Shown one piece after another: positions 33,887 to 43,598 of a stretch of 64,000 bases of DNA (within the stretch, counting starts at the first letter, position 1; the number at the start of each line of letters is the position of its first letter). The position numbers and the translations under genes were made by a program. Source of the stretch: Gemmatimonadales bacterium (GTDB lineage Bacteria > Gemmatimonadota > Gemmatimonadetes > Gemmatimonadales > Gemmatimonadaceae); assembly GCA_038208045.1 (NCBI GenBank), contig JBBQZD010000001.1, positions 4,526-68,525 of the forward strand. Reading direction: 5' to 3'. Below the pieces are notes generated by a model. That model did no database searches and was not told where the DNA came from. It saw only the letters and a list, made by a program, of their open reading frames with translations.

Positions 33887-34656
33887 AAACCCGTCGGGGC
33901 CTCCACAAAGCTCCACGGCACGCCGGCCTCGTCCGCCATCCACGCCGCGAGCGCACGCACGCCGGGAGTCTCCGTGGCGTAGTGCCCGGCATAAATGATC
34001 ACGAGGCCCTTCTCCGCGGCGTCCACGGCGCTCCAGTGTGGTCCTTCGCCCGTGATGATCGTGTCCAGGCCCAGGTCCACGGCCTCACGTATCGTGTCCG
34101 CGGTGATACCGGCGCCAGTCACCACCGCCCACCGGCGGGTGCGACGACCCGGCGTGAACGCGGAGGCAATCGCCTGGCCACCGTGCGATCGCGCGAAGCC
34201 ATCACAGCTTGCCAGCAGGGCCGCCGTATTGACGTCGGCTTCGCCCTGCACGCCGCAGAAGATGCTCTGGTAGCGGCCGAATCCGCCGCTCGACGTGAGG
34301 CCCAGTTCCCCGGCGAGCAGAAACGAATTGCCCATCGTTTCGTGGGCATCGAGCGGGAGGTGCGCCGAATAGAGGGCCATGTCGTGCCCAAGCAGCAGCC
34401 GGATGCGCTCAAGATGCGCGCCGGTGAGCGGCTGCAATCCGCCCCAGAATAGGCCGTGGTGCACGATGAGCAGGTTGGCGCCGGCGTCAACCGCGCCACG
34501 GATGGTCCTCAGGGAGCAATCCACGGCGGCGGCGATCCGGCAGACCGGCGTGGCATTGTCCACCTGCAGTCCGTTGAGCGCCAGCGCATAGTCCGGTGTT
34601 TCGCGGCAGCGCAACAGGGCGTTGGCTCGTTGTGCGAGGTCGGTGGCGGAAATCAT
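33883..34656 (-). CDS. NIF3 family (GTP cyclohydrolase 1 type 2 homolog / YbgI-like) dinuclear-metal protein
   Basis: 257 aa from MISATDLAQRANALL. Contains LLIVHHGLFW, YSAHLPLDAH, ITGE..H motifs. It is the last part of the 33883..35520 composite track ORF. Confidence 0.85.
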   Translation of the reverse strand: MISATDLAQRANALLRCRETPDYALALNGLQVDNATPVCRIAAAVDCSLRTIRGAVDAGANLLIVHHGLFWGGLQPLTGAHLERIRLLLGHDMALYSAHLPLDAHETMGNSFLLAGELGLTSSGGFGRYQSIFCGVQGEADVNTAALLASCDGFARSHGGQAIASAFTPGRRTRRWAVVTGAGITADTIREAVDLGLDTIITGEGPHWSAVDAAEKGLVIIYAGHYATETPGVRALAAWMADEAGVPWSFVEAPTGL

Positions 34657-35687
34657 TGGTTCTCCGGCGGGCGTGCGAGGTATGGCGGCGTGAACGTGCC
34701 GTCGCGCATTGCCAGGCGCAGCGAGTCGACCAGGTGCGTGGTGCGTGCCGGGATCACCGAGACCAGGGCAGGATTTGCCACCCACCGCATGACGTCGCTC
34801 CGTGTGTCGAGCGTGATGACGCGCGGCCTGAACGTCCCGGCCTTCACGTCGCGGGCCACTGTGAGGAAGGCATGCGGCAGGTCGATCACCACGGAGCCGA
34901 GGGTCACGGTGGGCGCCACGGCGTTCTGGTCGGAATTGGAGCCGATGATGTAGACGCCCTTCGACTCCTTGGCGGCCTGGAAGATGCCGAGGCCGGCCGC
35001 ATCGGCGTTCTGGTAGATGACGTCCACTCCTCGCGCAATCTGTGCCAGCGCCTGTTCCTTGCCGGCGCTGGCGTCTTCCCAGTTGCCGAGGTAGGCCGTG
35101 ATGACCCTTGCACGCGGGTTCACGGCGTGCACCCCGGCGGTGAACGCCGCGAACCCCGACTTCACGGGCGGAAGCTCCGTCCCGCCGATGCAACCGATCA
35201 TTCCCGAGTGGCTGACGCTCGCGGCCACGAGGCCGGCGAGGTACGATGGCTCCTCGAAGGCAAAGGACATGGCCGCCACGTTGGCGCTGGTCCGCGTGCC
35301 GCCGGTCGTGATGTAGATCGTGCGTGGATACAGCGGTCCGACGCGGGCGGCGGCATCCTGAAACTCGAATCCGTGTCCGAAGACCAGTGCGTACCCCTGG
35401 GCGCCATACTGGCGGAAGTTCTCCTCGAACTCCGCGGGCGTCTTCGTCTGGATATGGCTGACCTGTGCGCCCAGCGAATCGCGAATTCGCATCAGACCGG
35501 CATAGGCGCCGCCGTTCCACGACTGATCCGAGATGGGGCCAGGCGTCAACAACGCCACGCCGAATGACAGTTTGGCGGTAGCGGCGGAGTCATTCTTCGA
35601 TGCCGAGCACGCACCGAGCATTCCCACAGCGATGTGGAAAAAACAGATAACCCGAATGACTGACCGGTTACGAATAATATATAACAT
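34653..35687 (-). CDS. BMP family (PnrA/Med-like) ABC transporter substrate-binding lipoprotein
   Basis: Signal MLYIIRNRSVIRVICFFHIAVGMLGAC, then the BMP-family pattern (GPISDQSWNGGAY...GHGFEF...). The stop overlaps the NIF3 ATG (ATGA). The 5' end is unusually AT-rich. Confidence 0.8.
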   Translation of the reverse strand: MLYIIRNRSVIRVICFFHIAVGMLGACSASKNDSAATAKLSFGVALLTPGPISDQSWNGGAYAGLMRIRDSLGAQVSHIQTKTPAEFEENFRQYGAQGYALVFGHGFEFQDAAARVGPLYPRTIYITTGGTRTSANVAAMSFAFEEPSYLAGLVAASVSHSGMIGCIGGTELPPVKSGFAAFTAGVHAVNPRARVITAYLGNWEDASAGKEQALAQIARGVDVIYQNADAAGLGIFQAAKESKGVYIIGSNSDQNAVAPTVTLGSVVIDLPHAFLTVARDVKAGTFRPRVITLDTRSDVMRWVANPALVSVIPARTTHLVDSLRLAMRDGTFTPPYLARPPENQ

Positions 35688-35791
35688 GTTTATTGGTAAT
35701 AACTTATAGAAATATAGCAAACAAATGAAGTGTGTTTTCCGCGCCTGTTGATAACACGAAAGTCTGTGCATTCATCGGCTGGTGCCACGAA

Positions 35792-36214
35792 TCAGATGAC
35801 GGTCTGTTCGTGACCACTCGTTGTCTGCTGGTCCCCCACGAGACGGATATCCGTCATCCGCACGCCGCCGTTGATGCGCGCGCCCTCGAGCACCACGATG
35901 GACTTGGTGTCAATGTCCCCGTTCACCATCGCCGAGCTCTGCAACTCCAGGCGTTCGTCGGCGACGATCGTGCCATCCACCACACCGCCGATCACCACTT
36001 CTCCTGCGTGCACGTTGCCGTGAATTGCCCCGCCACGACCCAGGAGCAACTGGCGTGCGCCGGTCACGGACCCATCGATGCGGCCATCGATCTTCAGGGT
36101 GCCCGTCGACTCCACGTCGCCCGTGACGTGCGTTCCCGCCGCGATGATCGACAGCGACGCTTCGGCCCCGGCGGCGCGTTCGCCCTTCTCGGTGTTCTTG
36201 CTCAGTAGTGCCAC
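35792..36214 (-). CDS. bactofilin family cytoskeletal protein
   Basis: 140 aa with repetitive beta-helix pattern: TGDVESTGTLKIDGRIDGSVTGARQLLLGRGGAIHGNVHAGEVVIGGVVDGTIVADERLELQSSAMVNGDIDTKSIVVLEGARINGGV. Confidence 0.85.
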   Translation of the reverse strand: MALLSKNTEKGERAAGAEASLSIIAAGTHVTGDVESTGTLKIDGRIDGSVTGARQLLLGRGGAIHGNVHAGEVVIGGVVDGTIVADERLELQSSAMVNGDIDTKSIVVLEGARINGGVRMTDIRLVGDQQTTSGHEQTVI

Positions 36215-36228
36215 GATGTCTTCCTCGG

Positions 36229-36780
36229 TTAGTGCGTGGTGTCGTTGGGTGCCTTCGCGGCCGCGGCCTTCTTCTTCGACGTGTCAGCGGCTGCGCTCGG
36301 CAGGACCTTGCCTGCCGGGGAAGTCTTTGCCGGTTTCTCGGGCGGTGGGGTGACAGGCGCCGGCACCTTGGTTGCGCCGGTCGTTTCCGACATGCCCTTG
36401 GCGGGCGCAGTGGTCCGGGTCGGCGCCGCGCTCAGCATCTGCTGGACCTGCTCATACCGTTTTTGCAGCTGCCCGAGCGTCGCCTGAAGCGTGTCGATCT
36501 TCGCGGCGTCACTCTCGAGGTGCGCGATGCGCTTGGTGAGGAACGGCACGCGCGCGGTCTGGATGGCAAAGTAACCCCAGCTCAGCGCAACCAGTGTCAG
36601 CACGAGCGCAAACCAGCGTGAGGTGACGAGGCGCAGGGCCTGCACCTGCCACGGACGCAACGTCAGTGTCCGATGTGCGAGGCCGTTCTCTCGTTGCACG
36701 TGAATGAACATGCTGCCCGAGCCACGGCCGAACACGTTGCCGTGCCGGTGATCCCTGGACTCGTGCGTGGTCCTGCTCAC
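36229..36780 (-). CDS. hypothetical bitopic membrane protein with coiled coil and Pro/Ala/Lys-rich tail
   Basis: TM segment WFALVLTLVALSWGYFAIQTA, coiled coil LTKRIAHLESDAAKIDTLQATLGQLQKRYEQVQQML, low-complexity tail. The GTG start overlaps the parB stop (GTGA). Confidence 0.6.
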   Translation of the reverse strand: MSRTTHESRDHRHGNVFGRGSGSMFIHVQRENGLAHRTLTLRPWQVQALRLVTSRWFALVLTLVALSWGYFAIQTARVPFLTKRIAHLESDAAKIDTLQATLGQLQKRYEQVQQMLSAAPTRTTAPAKGMSETTGATKVPAPVTPPPEKPAKTSPAGKVLPSAAADTSKKKAAAAKAPNDTTH

Positions 36781-37697
36781 GCCATCCCCCGCTCGGCTGT
36801 GCCGAGCAGAAGTTCGAGGAGACGCGAGAGGTCCTCGTTGTTGTAGAAGGAAAGTCGGATCTCGCCTTGGGCCTTGCCGCCAAGCGCGAGCTTGACATCC
36901 GTCTGGTACCGTCGCCGCAGCTGTTCTTCAATGAGGCGCGCTTCGGCCGGTCGTGAATCGCCGGCGACGGAACTGCCCTGCTTGGCCTTGCGTCCGCGGC
37001 CACCCGTGGTCTCGCGCACGCGCTGTTCCACCTCACGCACGCTCAGGCCATCGGTCACGACGATCCTGGCCAGATCGGCTATGCGAACGTCGTCGCCAAG
37101 CGCGAGCAGTGCGCGCGCATGTCCGAGCGACAGCGCGCCCTCGCGCACCTGTCGGCGCACGGAGGCTGGAAGTCCGAGCAGCCGCAACATGTTGGCAACG
37201 GTCGAGCGATCCTTGCCGACGATGTCCGAGGTCTCCTGCTGCGTGATCGAGAAGGTCGACATCAACTGCTGGTACCCCTCGGCCTCTTCGATCGGATTGA
37301 GGTCCGTGCGCTGCAGATTCTCGACGAGGGCGAGCGTGAGCAACTCCTTGTCACCGATTTCCTTGATGATCGCGGGAATGTCGGTCCATCCGAGTCGTTG
37401 GGCCGCGCGAAAGCGCCGCTCACCGGCGATGAGTTCATAGCCGCTGCCGGACGGTGCGGGCCGCACGGTGACGGGCTGCAGCAAACCGTTCACCCGCAGG
37501 CTCGACTCGAGGTCGGCAAGATCCGCTTCGCGAAATTCCTTGCGTGGCTGCATGGGATTCGGACGAATCTGCGCCATGGACAGGCGCCGCAACCCCTCGC
37601 GATCCGCGTGGGTGCGAGGCATTGATTCCGTTCGTGCGGTGGGCCTGCTTGAGAGCAGAGCCTCAAGGCCTCTACCGAGGCGCGGTTTGTCGGCCAT
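36777..37697 (-). CDS. parB: chromosome partitioning protein ParB
   Basis: 306 aa: MADKPRLGRGLEALL, GERRFRAA box, HTH. Confidence 0.95.
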   Translation of the reverse strand: MADKPRLGRGLEALLSSRPTARTESMPRTHADREGLRRLSMAQIRPNPMQPRKEFREADLADLESSLRVNGLLQPVTVRPAPSGSGYELIAGERRFRAAQRLGWTDIPAIIKEIGDKELLTLALVENLQRTDLNPIEEAEGYQQLMSTFSITQQETSDIVGKDRSTVANMLRLLGLPASVRRQVREGALSLGHARALLALGDDVRIADLARIVVTDGLSVREVEQRVRETTGGRGRKAKQGSSVAGDSRPAEARLIEEQLRRRYQTDVKLALGGKAQGEIRLSFYNNEDLSRLLELLLGTAERGMA

Positions 37698-37758
37698 ATG
37701 TCCCTATTATGTTGCTATGATGCTGCTATAATGGCGTGATTATCTGCCATTTTCGACA

Positions 37759-38562
37759 CTAAACGGCGATGTTTTCGCGATTATCGGCCTTTGTCTTCTC
37801 GATCAACTCCTTCGCGACGCCCATATAAGCTTGTGCGCCGACGGACGCGAGATCGTACAGGATGATCGGTTTGCCGAAGCTTGGGGCCTCCGCCAGGCGC
37901 ACGTTCCTCGGCACCACGCTATGAAAGACCTTGGCGCCGAAGTACTCGCGTGCGTCGGCTGCAACCTGCCGCGAGAGGTTGAGGCGCGCGTCGTACATGG
38001 TCAACAGCACCCCATCTATTCCAAGCGACGGATTCACGCCCTGCTGTACGAGGTTCACCGTGTTCAGTAACTGACTGAGCCCCTCGAGCGCGTAGTACTC
38101 GCACTGTAGTGGTATGAGCACGGCATCGGCCGCGGCCAGCATATTCAAGGTGATCAACCCCAGGGACGGCGGACAGTCAATCAGAATGAACTCATAGTCG
38201 CCGGTCACCATCTCCAGCGCCCGGCGCATCGAAAGCTCCCGGTCTTCCTTGTTCACCAGTTCCACCTCGGCGCCCGCCAGATCAGGCGTCGCCGGGAGCA
38301 CATCGAGAAAACGGAACTGCACCTCCTTCACGATGGCCGTGTCAATGGCGGACGGATCAAGGAGCACGTCGTATGTCGTGTCTCGCAGGTCTTCGCGCGA
38401 GAGACCTATGCCGCTCGTGGCGTTTCCCTGAGGATCCCCGTCGATCAAGAGCACGCGCTGCTCGGCGGCCGCAAGACAGGCGGCGAGGTTCACGGCGGTG
38501 GTGGTCTTGCCGACTCCACCCTTCTGGTTGGCAATCGCGATGATACGGGCCAAGGGGCGCAC
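37759..38562 (-). CDS. parA: chromosome partitioning ATPase ParA (Soj)
   Basis: IIAIANQKGGVGKTTTAVNLA deviant Walker A. GTG start at 38562 preferred; the track ORF extends to a TTG at 38586. Confidence 0.95.
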   Translation of the reverse strand: MRPLARIIAIANQKGGVGKTTTAVNLAACLAAAEQRVLLIDGDPQGNATSGIGLSREDLRDTTYDVLLDPSAIDTAIVKEVQFRFLDVLPATPDLAGAEVELVNKEDRELSMRRALEMVTGDYEFILIDCPPSLGLITLNMLAAADAVLIPLQCEYYALEGLSQLLNTVNLVQQGVNPSLGIDGVLLTMYDARLNLSRQVAADAREYFGAKVFHSVVPRNVRLAEAPSFGKPIILYDLASVGAQAYMGVAKELIEKTKADNRENIAV

Positions 38563-38642
38563 GACTCCAGCAAAGGTCCGGCACAAATAGAGAAGCGGGA
38601 GGCCGTATTATGGCCCCCCGCCCGGTCAATTGCTAGCCAAAA

Positions 38643-38658
38643 TGTTCCACGTGGAACA
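38643..38658. promoter_or_regulatory. parS centromere site TGTTCCACGTGGAACA (perfect 16-bp palindrome)
   Basis: Matches the parS consensus tGTTnCACGTGnAACa. It lies ~60-80 nt upstream of parA and is the only full site seen in the window. Confidence 0.85.
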
Positions 38659-38725: not shown

Positions 38726-39472
38726 CTACTCGCGTACCGCCCATCGTACGGTAACCGTTTCCGTCACCTTCAGTTCGCCAGGGTTCACTGGGGTTGGCCC
38801 CATTTCTGAGGATAGTTTCATTTGACGCGCGGGCGCATAGTCAACCATCGGAAAATCGTGGGAGGCGGACGCGATGATCTCGAGCAATCCGCCCAGCTGC
38901 AATCCGGCGGCCTTCACCATCGCCTCGGCATCCAGCTTTGCCGCCGACACCGCACGAGCCATCGCCTCACGGTGTGCCTCGACGGACTTGGAGGAGAAGA
39001 AGTTCAGCCCGCCAATCCCGCTGGCTCCTTTGGCCAGGCCAGCGTCAATGAGAATGCCCGTTTGGTCGAGTTTCAGCACCTCCACCCGCACCGAATTGCT
39101 GGCCACGTAGCCGGAGACCTTCGGCGGCAGCCCCTGCCCGGGATAGACCATCTCCGGGGCGACTTGCAGGTTGGACGTCTGCATCTTGTCGACGGCGACG
39201 CCAAGCCGCTGCAGCGTATCAATGACCGCCCGCTGCCGGCGGCTGTTCTCCGCCGCCGCCGCCGCCGCGGTGCTTGCCCTGGTCTCGACCGTGAACATCA
39301 CACTGGCGCGATCGGGCTTCAGTTCGACCTCGCCACGCGCGGTCGTGACAATCTGAGGCACTGGCGGCGAAGACGGCTGCTGTGCCCCGGCGACGATTGG
39401 ATGTAATGCGCCGAGGCCAAGCACCAAGGCAGACACAACGGAAAGCGACCGAATGATTGACGTACGACGCAT
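38726..39472 (-). CDS. SIMPL (DUF541) domain periplasmic protein
   Basis: Signal peptide, then ARGEVELKPDRASVMFTVETRASTAAAAAAENSRRQRAVIDTLQRLG..., the typical SIMPL pattern. Confidence 0.75.
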   Translation of the reverse strand: MRRTSIIRSLSVVSALVLGLGALHPIVAGAQQPSSPPVPQIVTTARGEVELKPDRASVMFTVETRASTAAAAAAENSRRQRAVIDTLQRLGVAVDKMQTSNLQVAPEMVYPGQGLPPKVSGYVASNSVRVEVLKLDQTGILIDAGLAKGASGIGGLNFFSSKSVEAHREAMARAVSAAKLDAEAMVKAAGLQLGGLLEIIASASHDFPMVDYAPARQMKLSSEMGPTPVNPGELKVTETVTVRWAVRE

Positions 39473-39579: not shown

Positions 39580-41634
39580 TTATCGCGCTTCGCGCCAGGC
39601 CGCCATCAGCGAGTCGCGTTGCAGCGGCAAATACTGGAGTGGCGCATCAACCCGCGTGCCCGCGCGCTTCAATAGGTATACCGGGCGGCCGGCGAATTGT
39701 GCCAGCAACAGGGAATCACGACCCTGCAGATCCCGCGCGTAGACATTGTCGCCGGTCGTGATCAGGCGCAGCGGTGCGTAGTGCAAAAAGCCCGCGCGGT
39801 CATCCTCGATGTGCTGCAGGCAGGCGGGGGTGTAGCGCGCACCGGGACGCATGCGCTCCGTGGGATCGGGTGTGAGTGTGCTCTTCTGTACCACGGCCGA
39901 GTCACGCGCGAGCACGACGGCGAGCCGCTGCTCGGCCGCGAATCCGCGCACGCCTTCGCGCTCGAGGTCAGTGATCTCACGCTCGAGGTCACACGCGTCG
40001 GTGCCGCGATAGACCGACTCGGTCTTGGCGCGTGACACCCCGAGCCCCCAGAGCCGCGCCACGAGCTGTGCCCCCCAGCTTTCGCGCACGAAGACGAGCG
40101 CGCCGCGCACGCCGGCTTGCTCTGCGCGGCGGGCGTAGTCTACGCGCATCGACGTGAGTCCCGCGCGGTACGATGCCAGGCGTACCGGGAGATTGAAGAC
40201 CAACGCCCCCACGATGCCGAACGCGAGCGCGGCCGTGACGCCGCGGCGCAGGTGTGCCGACGTCAGGCGGTCAGCCACGACACGCGGCACGCGCGCTGCC
40301 CACAGGACGAGCACGGGCAGCAGTGGAAGAACGAAACGTGGACCGAGATAGAATCCGTCGTGCCAGTAGAGCAGGTAGAAGACGATGAGGAGCGCGCCGG
40401 AGCCGAGGAGATACTTGTCCAGGGCGCCGAGGCGTGCGCGCGTGAAGAACAGGGCGCCAACCGGCAGCAGGAGCGACGGAAACGGCGTCTCGAACAGGTA
40501 GGTCTGCAGCCGCCACTGGTAGAGCGAGGCGAGCGCGAGGCCGCGCAGCGGCGTATGCGGTGCCCCCCACGGCGCGGCATGGAAGCCCAACCCGTGCGTG
40601 GCGCCCCACAGCACTTCGTAGCCAAACAGGAGCGGTTGTCCCGTGGTCTGCAGGTTCACGTACATCATGGCGGCAAACGGAAGCGCGACGCCAAGACCGG
40701 CGATGACATTTTGAGTCCAGCGCCGCCAGTCGCTTCCCGCGCGCGCAACGAGCCACAGGGCTGCGGGGAGCGCGAACGCAAAGGCGTCAAGCGGCCGGAT
40801 GGTGGCGGCCGCACCGAGTCCGACGCCAACGGCCAGGCTGAGCGCTACGGTTCTCGGGCGCAGGGACGTGGCGTGGACGCGTCCTGCCGCCGCGGCATCG
40901 TCCGCGACGAGTGCGACGAGCGCGACGACCGCCACGAGGATAAAGAGCAGCGCGGTGACGTGGTTCATGTACGAGCCGAACATGAAGACGCCGAAGGGAG
41001 CGAGCGCAAACAGCAGCGTGGCGCCGACCACCCAGCCGTCCGACGCATCGGGTTCCGCGGCGCGAGCGATGCGTGAGAAGAGCCAGACGATGAGCGCGCC
41101 GCAGACCGGCCCCACCAGCCACGGTGCGCCAGCCATCACGCCGAGCCAGAGCATGAACGGTCCGCCGGAGGGAAACTGCGAGTACACCCGGTCTCCGGTG
41201 TCCACGAGGTGCAGGTACGAAAAGAACTCGCGATGCAACGGCGTCGGAATCCACAGGTGGCCTTCAGCGTATCGCTGTGCCTGCCAGAGCTGCGCCAGTT
41301 CGTCGATGAGCAATGGCCGGCGTGAGAAGACCACCGTCGCCACGAGCGCATAGAGCATCAAGGAGCCAAATGCGACCAATGCCACGCGCGCCGCGAGCCC
41401 CCACGGATGGGCCTGCCGCGGCGCGATGGACGGCCAGTGGCCGCGACGGGACGCCATCCACGCCAGCAGCGCGACGCCGAACGTCAGTGCGGTGCCCGTG
41501 CCCCAGTCCCGCAGCTGGGTGGAGAGTCCGGACATCTCGAGTCCGACGTCGAGCAATGCGGCGAACGGGATGAAGCCGAGCACGACGAGCACGAAGCCCG
41601 CCGCGCGCGCCGGCCAGACACCCCGGTCGTTCAC
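39580..41634 (-). CDS. GT-C fold (family 39 / ArnT-like) membrane glycosyltransferase with C-terminal soluble domain
   Basis: About 12 predicted TM helices; acidic first-loop motif LLIDELAQLWQAQRYAEG. The family call is from the pattern only. Confidence 0.5.
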   Translation of the reverse strand: MNDRGVWPARAAGFVLVVLGFIPFAALLDVGLEMSGLSTQLRDWGTGTALTFGVALLAWMASRRGHWPSIAPRQAHPWGLAARVALVAFGSLMLYALVATVVFSRRPLLIDELAQLWQAQRYAEGHLWIPTPLHREFFSYLHLVDTGDRVYSQFPSGGPFMLWLGVMAGAPWLVGPVCGALIVWLFSRIARAAEPDASDGWVVGATLLFALAPFGVFMFGSYMNHVTALLFILVAVVALVALVADDAAAAGRVHATSLRPRTVALSLAVGVGLGAAATIRPLDAFAFALPAALWLVARAGSDWRRWTQNVIAGLGVALPFAAMMYVNLQTTGQPLLFGYEVLWGATHGLGFHAAPWGAPHTPLRGLALASLYQWRLQTYLFETPFPSLLLPVGALFFTRARLGALDKYLLGSGALLIVFYLLYWHDGFYLGPRFVLPLLPVLVLWAARVPRVVADRLTSAHLRRGVTAALAFGIVGALVFNLPVRLASYRAGLTSMRVDYARRAEQAGVRGALVFVRESWGAQLVARLWGLGVSRAKTESVYRGTDACDLEREITDLEREGVRGFAAEQRLAVVLARDSAVVQKSTLTPDPTERMRPGARYTPACLQHIEDDRAGFLHYAPLRLITTGDNVYARDLQGRDSLLLAQFAGRPVYLLKRAGTRVDAPLQYLPLQRDSLMAAWREAR

Positions 41635-43598
41635 GCCACTCCAGCGGGAGAGGGGCCGCGCCGCCCGCGCCAGCGTTCCACCTCGAGCACGAGGTTCTGC
41701 AAGTCGGCCGGGCTCACGCCCGATAACCGGGCGGCCATCGCCAGCGACGTCGGCTGACGTGCGGAGAGCTTCTGGCGGGCCTCGATGGAAAGCGACTTCA
41801 GCGTCGCGTACGGCAGGTCGGACGGCAGCGCGAAATCGCCCATGCGCTGCAAGCGGTCGGCCGCTTCGCGCTCGCGCGCGAAGTACGTGACGTACTTGAT
41901 CTCGAGTTCGGCAGTCACCACGGCCTCGCCCGTCGGCGCATCGTCCACGCCGGCGGCGACGAACAGGTCGGCGAGGCCGATGTTCTGCCGGCGGGCGAGC
42001 TCGATGAGTTTCACCGACTGCGCCAGCGGTGCCGAACCCTGGCGCTCGAGCAGCGCGCGCGCCTGCTCGGGGCGCACGCTCGTCTCGGTGGCGATCCTGG
42101 CCGCGCGGTCTTCGTCGCGCAGGCGCGCGTCGATGGCACGCTGCTCGTCGTCGCCATAGAGGCCCAGCGACACGCCGACATGCGCGAGTCGCCGCAGCGC
42201 ATTGTCCTGCCGGACGGTCAAACGGAACTCGCTGCGCGACGTGAACAGTCGGTACGGTTCGTCCACGCCGCGCGAGACGATGTCATCCACGAGGACGCCG
42301 ATGTACGACGTGTCGCGGCCGAGGATGAGCGACTCGCGCTCCTGCACGGCGAGGCCGGCGTTGAGCCCCGCGACGAGTCCCTGCCCCGCGGCTTCCTCGT
42401 ACCCGGTGGTGCCGTTGACCTGTCCAGCCAGGTAGAGCCCCGGAATCTGCCGCACGGCGAGCGTCGGCTCGAGCTGCGTGGGCGGATAGTAGTCGTACTC
42501 GATGGCATAGCCCGCGCGCGTCATCTGCACCTGCCCGAGCCCGGGCACCGAGCGCAGCATCTCGAGCTGCACTTCGGCCGGGAGCGACGTGGAGAGGCCA
42601 TTCACATACAGTTCGTGCGTGTCCAGCCCCTCGGGCTCGAGAAAGACCTGATGCCGCTCCGCATCGGCGAAGCGGATGATCTTGTCCTCGATGCTCGGGC
42701 AGTAACGTGGACCGCGGCTGTCGATGGAGCCGCCGTACATGGCGCTGGCGCCGATGTTGTCGGAGACGATCTGCTTGAGATCGGAGCCGGTGTAGGTGAT
42801 CCAGCAGGGGAGCTGGGGTAACGAATCGCTACGCTCTACGCGGTCCGTCGTCCGCGGTACGGGCGCACGTGTTGGCGGGCGTCCCTCGTGTGGCGTCCCG
42901 AAGTGCGACCAGCGATAGTCGAAGTCGGCGAGTTCGCTGTGCTGGGCCGTGCACTTCGAGTAATCGACGCTCCGGCCATCGATGCGCGGTGGCGTGCCGG
43001 TCTTGAAGCGGCGCACCTCGAGGCCCACGTCGGCGAGCTGCTCGGCGAGGTGGGTGGTGGCGTTCTCGCCCGCCCGCCCGCCGGCCAGCTGCGTGGTGGT
43101 GCCGATATGGATCTTCCCGCGGCCAAACGTCCCCGTCGTGACCACCACGGCGCGCGCGCCGAAGCGGCGCTGCTCCAGCGTCTCGACGCCGACCACGCGG
43201 CCGTGCGCGATGAGCAGGCGGGCGACCGTGCCCTGAATGGCGGTGACGTTCGGGTGCGATTCGACGATGGATCGCACGGCGCGGCGGTACAGCCCGCGGT
43301 CGCACTGCGCGCGCGGCGCCCAGACGGCTGGACCCTTGCTCCGGTTGAGCATCCGGAACTGGATGGACGCGCGGTCGGTGGCGCGTCCCATGACGCCGCC
43401 CAGGGCATCCACTTCGCGAACGACGGTCCCCTTGGCGACGCCGCCGATGGCCGGGTTGCACGACATCTGCCCGATGGTCTCGAGCGCGCTCGTGATGAGC
43501 GCCACGCGGCAGCCCAGGCGCGCGGCGGCGACGGCGGCTTCGGTGCCGGCGTGCCCGCCGCCGATGACGACGACGTCGAAGGAGGATTCGGTGCGCAT
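41631..43598 (-). CDS. mnmG: tRNA uridine 5-carboxymethylaminomethyl modification enzyme MnmG (GidA)
   Basis: 655 aa: FDVVVIGGGHAGTEAA FAD motif. Internally longer than E. coli GidA around residues ~230-260. Confidence 0.95.
   Translation of the reverse strand: MRTESSFDVVVIGGGHAGTEAAVAAARLGCRVALITSALETIGQMSCNPAIGGVAKGTVVREVDALGGVMGRATDRASIQFRMLNRSKGPAVWAPRAQCDRGLYRRAVRSIVESHPNVTAIQGTVARLLIAHGRVVGVETLEQRRFGARAVVVTTGTFGRGKIHIGTTTQLAGGRAGENATTHLAEQLADVGLEVRRFKTGTPPRIDGRSVDYSKCTAQHSELADFDYRWSHFGTPHEGRPPTRAPVPRTTDRVERSDSLPQLPCWITYTGSDLKQIVSDNIGASAMYGGSIDSRGPRYCPSIEDKIIRFADAERHQVFLEPEGLDTHELYVNGLSTSLPAEVQLEMLRSVPGLGQVQMTRAGYAIEYDYYPPTQLEPTLAVRQIPGLYLAGQVNGTTGYEEAAGQGLVAGLNAGLAVQERESLILGRDTSYIGVLVDDIVSRGVDEPYRLFTSRSEFRLTVRQDNALRRLAHVGVSLGLYGDDEQRAIDARLRDEDRAARIATETSVRPEQARALLERQGSAPLAQSVKLIELARRQNIGLADLFVAAGVDDAPTGEAVVTAELEIKYVTYFAREREAADRLQRMGDFALPSDLPYATLKSLSIEARQKLSARQPTSLAMAARLSGVSPADLQNLVLEVERWRGRRGPSPAGVA

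Follow-up and report, generated by a model that had tools for sequence, protein, structure and literature searches.

Genes at the parAB-bactofilin locus

The DNA analyzed is a window of 64,000 nucleotides (nt) from a Gemmatimonadales bacterium of the family Gemmatimonadaceae (assembly GCA_038208045.1, contig JBBQZD010000001.1, positions 4,526 to 68,525), where a parS site and the partition genes parA and parB are followed, on the minus strand, by a gene for a protein of 183 amino acids (aa), called X in the following, and by a bactofilin gene (Table 1). A first-pass annotation had described this arrangement from the sequence, and its description held. The palindromic parS was recovered by pattern search and the downstream parA and parB by Pfam, and X was found to start with a GTG overlapping the TGA of parB (ggcGTGAgc), while the GTG of the bactofilin gene lies 14 nt past the TAA of X and is preceded by GAGGAAG. 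The features of a chromosomal ParABS system are all present: a Walker-type ParA, a ParB with ParB_N, HTH and GERRFRA, and a parS palindrome nearby. Throughout the analysis, start codons are those of the longest open reading frames (ORFs).

X is composed of a conserved cytoplasmic head (residues 13-55, HGNVFGRG...MFIHVQRENGLAHRTLTL), a transmembrane (TM) segment at about 56-73, a periplasmic heptad coiled coil at about 77-117, and a C-terminal tail (120-183), which is rich in Pro, Ala and Lys, variable in length and sequence, and of low complexity. The hydrophobic stretch covers residues 56-73, and L, I or V recur at 3/4 heptad spacing over 81-116. AlphaFold2 was run twice, on a shallow alignment and on one widened with homologues of the M23 peptidase LmdC. 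Both runs returned a continuous helix from residue 43 to 117, spanning TM segment and coiled coil, with a per-residue confidence (pLDDT) of 85-98, above 90 in the coiled coil (77-117), which supports these two parts of the architecture as already proposed; confidence is low in the tail. The topology is presumably N-in.

No ParB_N or other ParA/ParB-related domain was found in X by Pfam and NCBIfam scans, in agreement with the earlier description, and no SH3 family match was obtained by the Pfam scan, the tail being low-complexity and disordered. Sub-threshold Pfam/NCBIfam matches (DUF641, GspM) were dismissed as coiled-coil noise; the only match in a PDB profile search, GCN4 (E 0.8), was taken as a generic coiled coil.

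Homology of X to LmdC-type M23 peptidases

LmdC is a bitopic M23 DD-endopeptidase, whose gene adjoins bactofilin genes in 226 species (PMC10945521). Its cytoplasmic N-terminal peptide binds the bactofilin BacA with a dissociation constant of about 15 uM, a conserved beta-hairpin of the cytoplasmic region is required for recruitment, and normal BacA localisation requires LmdC binding (PMC10945521). The text supplement files of the same work (Pöhl et al. 2024) contain no Gemmatimonadota entry.

In an initial search of 40 related genomes, close homologues of X were confined to part of its own family, and weak matches (E 1e-10 to 3e-4) fell within longer ORFs of two sister families. There, the gene between parB and bactofilin encodes a protein of 266-275 aa with a canonical M23 domain (HPGIDxAVP ... 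YGH ... HLHFEIR; Pfam 1e-30 to 2e-35). When 20 proteins of the X family were compared with 7 of these M23 peptidases by hhalign, a probability of 97.6% was obtained (E 4.5e-12), X residues 24-119 being paired with peptidase residues 10-104, that is, with head, TM segment and coiled coil. The head of X, MFIHVQRENGLAHRTLTL, aligns with that of a full-length orthologue, YTVIVHRNGALESRQFQV, and cross-matches between hidden Markov models of the X family and the peptidases range from 1e-5 to 1e-17. By its position in the locus and by the homology that hhalign detects, X is orthologous to the N-terminal half of an LmdC-type M23 endopeptidase. The first-pass annotation had called X unrecognised; rather than an orphan, it corresponds to the head, TM and coiled-coil module of a peptidase located at the same position across the phylum.

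The single TM helix and the periplasmic coiled coil that characterize LmdC are both predicted in X. The C-terminal M23 domain, with its HxxxD, middle His and HxH, is missing, only the short spacer mentioned above separating X from the bactofilin gene. A six-frame search with an M23 profile detected no M23 signal in the whole 64-kb window. Since no M23-like sequence is found in any frame, the domain has been deleted and not merely frameshifted, and a frameshift or pseudogene origin of X was ruled out. A relocated LmdC was not found in the same genome either: at least four further M23 proteins are encoded in it, one of them an EnvC-like coiled-coil protein, and none of its five other M23 matches shows the LmdC-type head of hairpin plus TM. 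Without any M23 domain, X is predicted to be incapable of cleaving peptidoglycan. The new element here is the loss of the catalytic half, which leaves a peptidase-less variant.

Distribution across the phylum and beyond

The region downstream of parB was taken from 71 genomes belonging to 12 Gemmatimonadota families, and its ORFs were scored with profiles built for this analysis. In families f2-f12, the gene after parB encodes an LmdC-like M23 peptidase of 231-311 aa in 33/33 loci, usually overlapping parB by 4 nt, and a bactofilin gene comes next in 32 of them (L060 gave no bactofilin match). Outside the phylum, parA-parB-M23-bactofilin is found on a Latescibacteria contig (L134:2144-5270), and parB-M23-bactofilin on a contig with a protein named Zixibacteria (L135:385-2451). 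Because these contigs carry the same order, the operon predates the phylum Gemmatimonadota. In other distant relatives, the M23-bactofilin pair occurs with no parAB, or the M23 gene stands by itself.

Two loci stand apart. On a metagenomic contig of 2.47 Mb (L136:4001-6273), an LmdC-like M23 gene is followed by three tandem bactofilin genes, with no parAB nearby. A typical Gemmatimonadaceae parB-X-bactofilin locus is found in a metagenome-assembled genome labelled Verrucomicrobia bacterium Opi-474 (L098, QQNC01000128.1), an assignment that is probably a binning error.

Conservation of X

X-type proteins form more than 120 clusters at 90% identity in the protein database, with lengths of 113-210 aa, all unnamed or "hypothetical". 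The taxon names that accompany homologues likewise assign the window to Gemmatimonadaceae. A survey of synteny across the phylum had been suggested by the first-pass annotation, and the gene order proved to be conserved. In 62 X loci, collected by one scan of species-representative genomes, parB lies directly upstream of X in every case (62/62), with an overlap of 4 nt in 48 and of 1 nt in 9, and X is directly followed by a bactofilin gene in 60/60 of those that no contig end interrupts. The reading frame is intact in the 62 species. Among 20 diverse sequences, 43 columns between residues 24 and 116 are invariant, and the coiled coil (77-117) is conserved to the same degree as the head.

The ratio of nonsynonymous to synonymous substitution rates (dN/dS) was calculated for 12 congeneric species. 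It amounts to 0.08 for the X core and 0.53 for the X tail, compared with 0.12 in the bactofilin gene and 0.09 in parB; synonymous sites are saturated (dS about 1.4), which makes these ratios rough. They indicate purifying selection on the core of X and relaxed constraint on its tail. The numbers of clusters and species, the fixed synteny, the invariant columns and the low core dN/dS argue for a maintained gene, and not for a relic in free decay.

In six of 18 congeneric genomes (G002, G005, G010, G012, G013 and G014; 78-94% complete) neither ParB (E <= 1e-40) nor X was matched. These genomes may consistently lack an assembled origin-proximal region, or parAB may be missing; the absence of X is uninformative, because the ParB match is absent too.

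States of the locus within Gemmatimonadaceae

Four states of the locus can be distinguished within the family. In the first (genera g29-g31), the protein is full-length and the M23 fold is kept (Pfam 86-92 bits), with the catalytic residues lost: the first His of HxxxD is missing from its canonical position, as is the middle His (YGH is changed to YAG, YGN or YAN). Examples from sister genera are L033:1912-2775, L036:1882-2721 and L039:2644-3495. EnvC, NlpD and DipM are M23 proteins without catalysis that now have regulatory or scaffolding roles, and the degenerate full-length forms resemble that stage; they are probably dead LytM-type factors, intermediate before the loss of the domain. EnvC, NlpD and DipM still have the M23 fold and depend on it for their action, whereas X has lost the fold completely.

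The second state is that of the truncated X-type proteins, of about 130-250 aa and without M23, found in genera g1 (this genome), g7, g18, g21, g23 and g27. In the third, the bactofilin gene directly follows parB (g2, g19, g28 and g34). In the fourth, seen in at least 11 sampled genera, parB is directly followed by bmp or another gene; parAB is kept, and X and bactofilin are gone from the locus, some of these genomes encoding bactofilins elsewhere and others none. In a tree of the family built on two proteins, ParA and ParB, all seven sampled members of the clade of this genus are X-type. The other states are scattered and, for this reason, several independent truncations and losses are suggested, although the tree is to be read as indicative only.

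An N-terminal extension with the motif [HY]-G-N-[IV]-[FY]-x4-G-[AS]-M is common to every Gemmatimonadaceae form, the degenerate full-length proteins among them. The extension directly precedes the hairpin-like segment (window 36616-36744, X residues 13-55; homologues L027-L045).

Proposed role of X

The likely role of X is that of a non-enzymatic membrane partner of the bactofilin, derived from LmdC, and this is favoured over a new adaptor for chromosome segregation. The co-occurrence of the genes is asymmetric: no locus with X but no bactofilin was encountered, whereas some loci have a bactofilin and no X, and others only parAB. Combined with its descent from LmdC, this asymmetry points to X as an accessory of the bactofilin. 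In one clade of Gemmatimonadaceae, the LmdC-type bitopic M23 endopeptidase encoded between parB and bactofilin has lost its whole M23 domain. The remaining module comprises a head whose homologue in LmdC is the region that binds bactofilin, a TM helix, a periplasmic coiled coil and a disordered, linker-like tail. We infer that this head has retained binding to the bactofilin polymer at the membrane, and that X helps to organise or anchor this polymer as a transmembrane partner without enzymatic activity, while the periplasmic coiled coil may stabilise the assembly, or relay the position of the polymer to another cell-wall factor or wall enzyme. The location behind parAB and the 4-nt overlap with parB would be inherited from the old parA-parB-lmdC-bactofilin operon, and this location does not argue for an adaptor function newly acquired by X.

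Four observations weigh against this explanation. The beta-hairpin that defines the head of LmdC was not produced by AlphaFold2 in X, where residues 1-42 had a pLDDT of 46-63 in the two runs; in the wide alignment the hairpin had been misaligned by MAFFT, and the prediction therefore speaks neither for nor against a hairpin. X and the full-length peptidases are only about 23-33% identical. The strongly conserved N-terminal motif of Gemmatimonadaceae is missing from the LmdC-like proteins of all other sampled families, which may point to a cytoplasmic interaction gained or altered in this family. Finally, the translational coupling of parB to X is very old and conserved, and a purely accidental linkage does not account for it.

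Alternatively, X might act mainly in the periplasm, its coiled coil docking or regulating a separately encoded peptidoglycan enzyme, for example another M23 protein of the genome, which would replace the peptidase lost in cis, the bactofilin giving the position. This would be a variant of the bactofilin-partner explanation and not exclusive of it; as the main function it is considered rather unlikely. It is consistent with a coiled coil conserved like the head and confidently predicted, with the other M23 proteins of the genome, the EnvC-like one among them, and with the coiled-coil pairing of Api and LmdC proposed in P. aeruginosa. On the other side, no candidate partner emerged, X is accompanied by no conserved gene but that of the bactofilin, and its tail varies under relaxed constraint. 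A functionless remnant, heading for complete loss as in sister genera, is disfavoured and appears very improbable: the repeated loss of X, or of X and bactofilin together, implies that the module is dispensable in some lineages of the family, but the low dN/dS of the core across congeneric species (at saturated synonymous sites), the invariant columns, the frame intact in all species surveyed and the conserved overlap with the parB stop are at odds with decay.

The first-pass annotation had seen in X a membrane-anchored adaptor, functionally similar to PadC, tying ParA/ParB-parS to a bactofilin scaffold. Its precedent, bacNOP and padC encoded beside parAB in Myxococcus xanthus, was mistaken: bacM is the gene downstream of parAB, and BacNOP/PadC, the ParABS scaffold, is encoded elsewhere (PMC5703909). 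In the same species parA-parB-bacM-MXAN_7474 is co-transcribed, and BacM is dispensable for segregation (PMC3899335). In a more specific version of the adaptor hypothesis, the LmdC head of Gemmatimonadaceae would have gained, after the loss of the peptidase, the motif H/Y-G-N-[IV]-[FY]...G-[AS]-M and a new job, the coupling of origin-proximal ParB-parS or of ParA to the membrane-bound bactofilin. Both the general reading and this specific version are held to be improbable. The order parA-parB-(lmdC/X)-bactofilin with its 4-nt overlap, kept across the phylum and extending to the Latescibacteria and Zixibacteria contigs, speaks for an adaptor, and the head extension of Gemmatimonadaceae appears alongside the loss of catalytic residues, as would fit a new cytoplasmic partner. 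X derives, however, from a cell-wall enzyme, a known bactofilin client (PMC10945521), it has no domain related to ParA or ParB, and many Gemmatimonadaceae retain parAB without X or bactofilin. As a whole, a membrane link between segregation and bactofilin is weakly supported: the layout and the tight coupling remain in its favour, the LmdC ancestry and the 11 or more genera of the fourth state do not. If it were true, X would be a membrane-anchored, non-homologous counterpart of PadC, and the ancient coupling of parB and X would reflect a real physical link of chromosome segregation to the cell envelope.

Pairs of bactofilin and LmdC are thought to direct a peptidoglycan hydrolase to particular sites. 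The loss of the enzyme from a whole clade in which strong selection has preserved the half of LmdC that faces the bactofilin amounts to a natural experiment; it suggests an independent function for the module of head, TM segment and coiled coil, for instance in organising the bactofilin or in passing on its position. As every stage is found in Gemmatimonadaceae (active enzyme, dead enzyme, truncated protein and no gene), the family is useful for studying how a module of cytoskeleton and enzyme is dismantled. The recurrent linkage of parAB and bactofilin is ancient and tight, yet not required by ParABS.

Comparison with known bactofilin partners

Like the LmdC of the LmdC-BacA pairs of Hyphomonas neptunium and Rhodospirillum rubrum, and like that of P. 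aeruginosa, X is bitopic, with a short cytoplasmic head, a TM segment and a periplasmic coiled coil; its gene adjoins a bactofilin gene, and in sister families this locus encodes full-length orthologues with an M23 domain. Unlike LmdC, X has no M23 domain and has an extra conserved N-terminal motif, and structure prediction did not yield the hairpin. The LmdC of P. aeruginosa undergoes autoprocessing, which yields an N- and a C-terminal part, and works with a bactofilin and with Api, a bitopic coiled-coil protein (bioRxiv 10.64898/2026.10.09.758143). The N-terminal fragment that arises there is then degraded, whereas in X the N-terminal module is the whole, conserved product. Api (PA0663) is, like X, bitopic and encoded with a bactofilin; compared by description only, its cytoplasmic tail is short and its periplasmic helix has been proposed to pair with LmdC, and it differs in its C-terminal beta-sandwich and in acting beside a full-length LmdC.

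The non-enzymatic bitopic protein Csd5 of H. pylori uses its cytoplasmic N-terminus to bind the bactofilin CcmA, which it recruits to the envelope (PMC9507126). The same mode of action, bactofilin binding by a cytoplasmic N-terminus, is proposed for X, which is likewise bitopic and predicted to be non-enzymatic; Csd5 ends in a peptidoglycan-binding SH3 domain and X in a low-complexity tail, the two being compared by description only. With parA-parB-bacM-MXAN_7474 of M. xanthus the locus has in common a bactofilin gene downstream of parAB. The bactofilins BacNOP of that species position ParABS through the adaptor PadC, which, unlike X, is soluble, is encoded away from this locus and uses a ParB-like domain.

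Other features of the locus

Table 1. Features of the parAB-bactofilin locus and of its flanks, listed in the order of the minus strand; positions are those of the window.
Feature	Position	Strand	Evidence
mnmG	41631-43598	minus	
Polytopic membrane protein, 684 aa	between mnmG and the SIMPL-domain gene	minus	
SIMPL-domain protein	38726-39472	minus	
parS, perfect 16-nt palindrome TGTTCCACGTGGAACA	38643-38658		pattern match
parA, Walker-type partition ATPase, KGGVGKTT	37759-38586	minus	PF13614 3e-65
parB	36777-37697	minus	ParB_N 8e-33, HTH_ParB 4e-35, weak ParB_C, GERRFRA CTP-binding motif
X, 183 aa, peptidase-less LmdC derivative	36229-36780	minus	no Pfam/NCBIfam family above cut-off
Bactofilin, 140 aa	35792-36214	minus	PF04519 3.1e-25, 97/98 profile positions
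Bmp/PnrA-type binding protein	34653-35771	minus	

The bactofilin gene is the only one in the assembly (3.2 Mb, 81% complete), where the parS palindrome is likewise single-copy. The N-terminus of the bactofilin, MALLSKNTEK (MA[IM]F[GST]K in relatives), bears only a resemblance to MFSKKKK, the membrane-targeting consensus of bactofilins (PMC12448750). The parS sequence TGTTCCACGTGGAACA has a single mismatch to the pattern TGTTNCACGTGAAACA, and 0.02 such matches per window are expected by chance. The longest parA ORF opens with a TTG at 38586; the alignment with homologues begins only at residue 10-12, which makes the GTG at 38562 a likelier start codon.

A simple promoter and terminator scan, which is of little weight, found nothing within the operon. 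The 61-nt spacer between parA and parB (37698-37758) is AT-rich, unlike the overlapping junctions downstream, and for this reason may contain an internal promoter for parB-X-bactofilin. Between parS and the parA start, a GC-rich hairpin with a 12-bp stem, followed by a T-rich tract, is found at 38593-38623 (minus strand); if it terminates transcription of the upstream SIMPL gene, as is possible, parS would lie within the 3' untranslated region of that gene.

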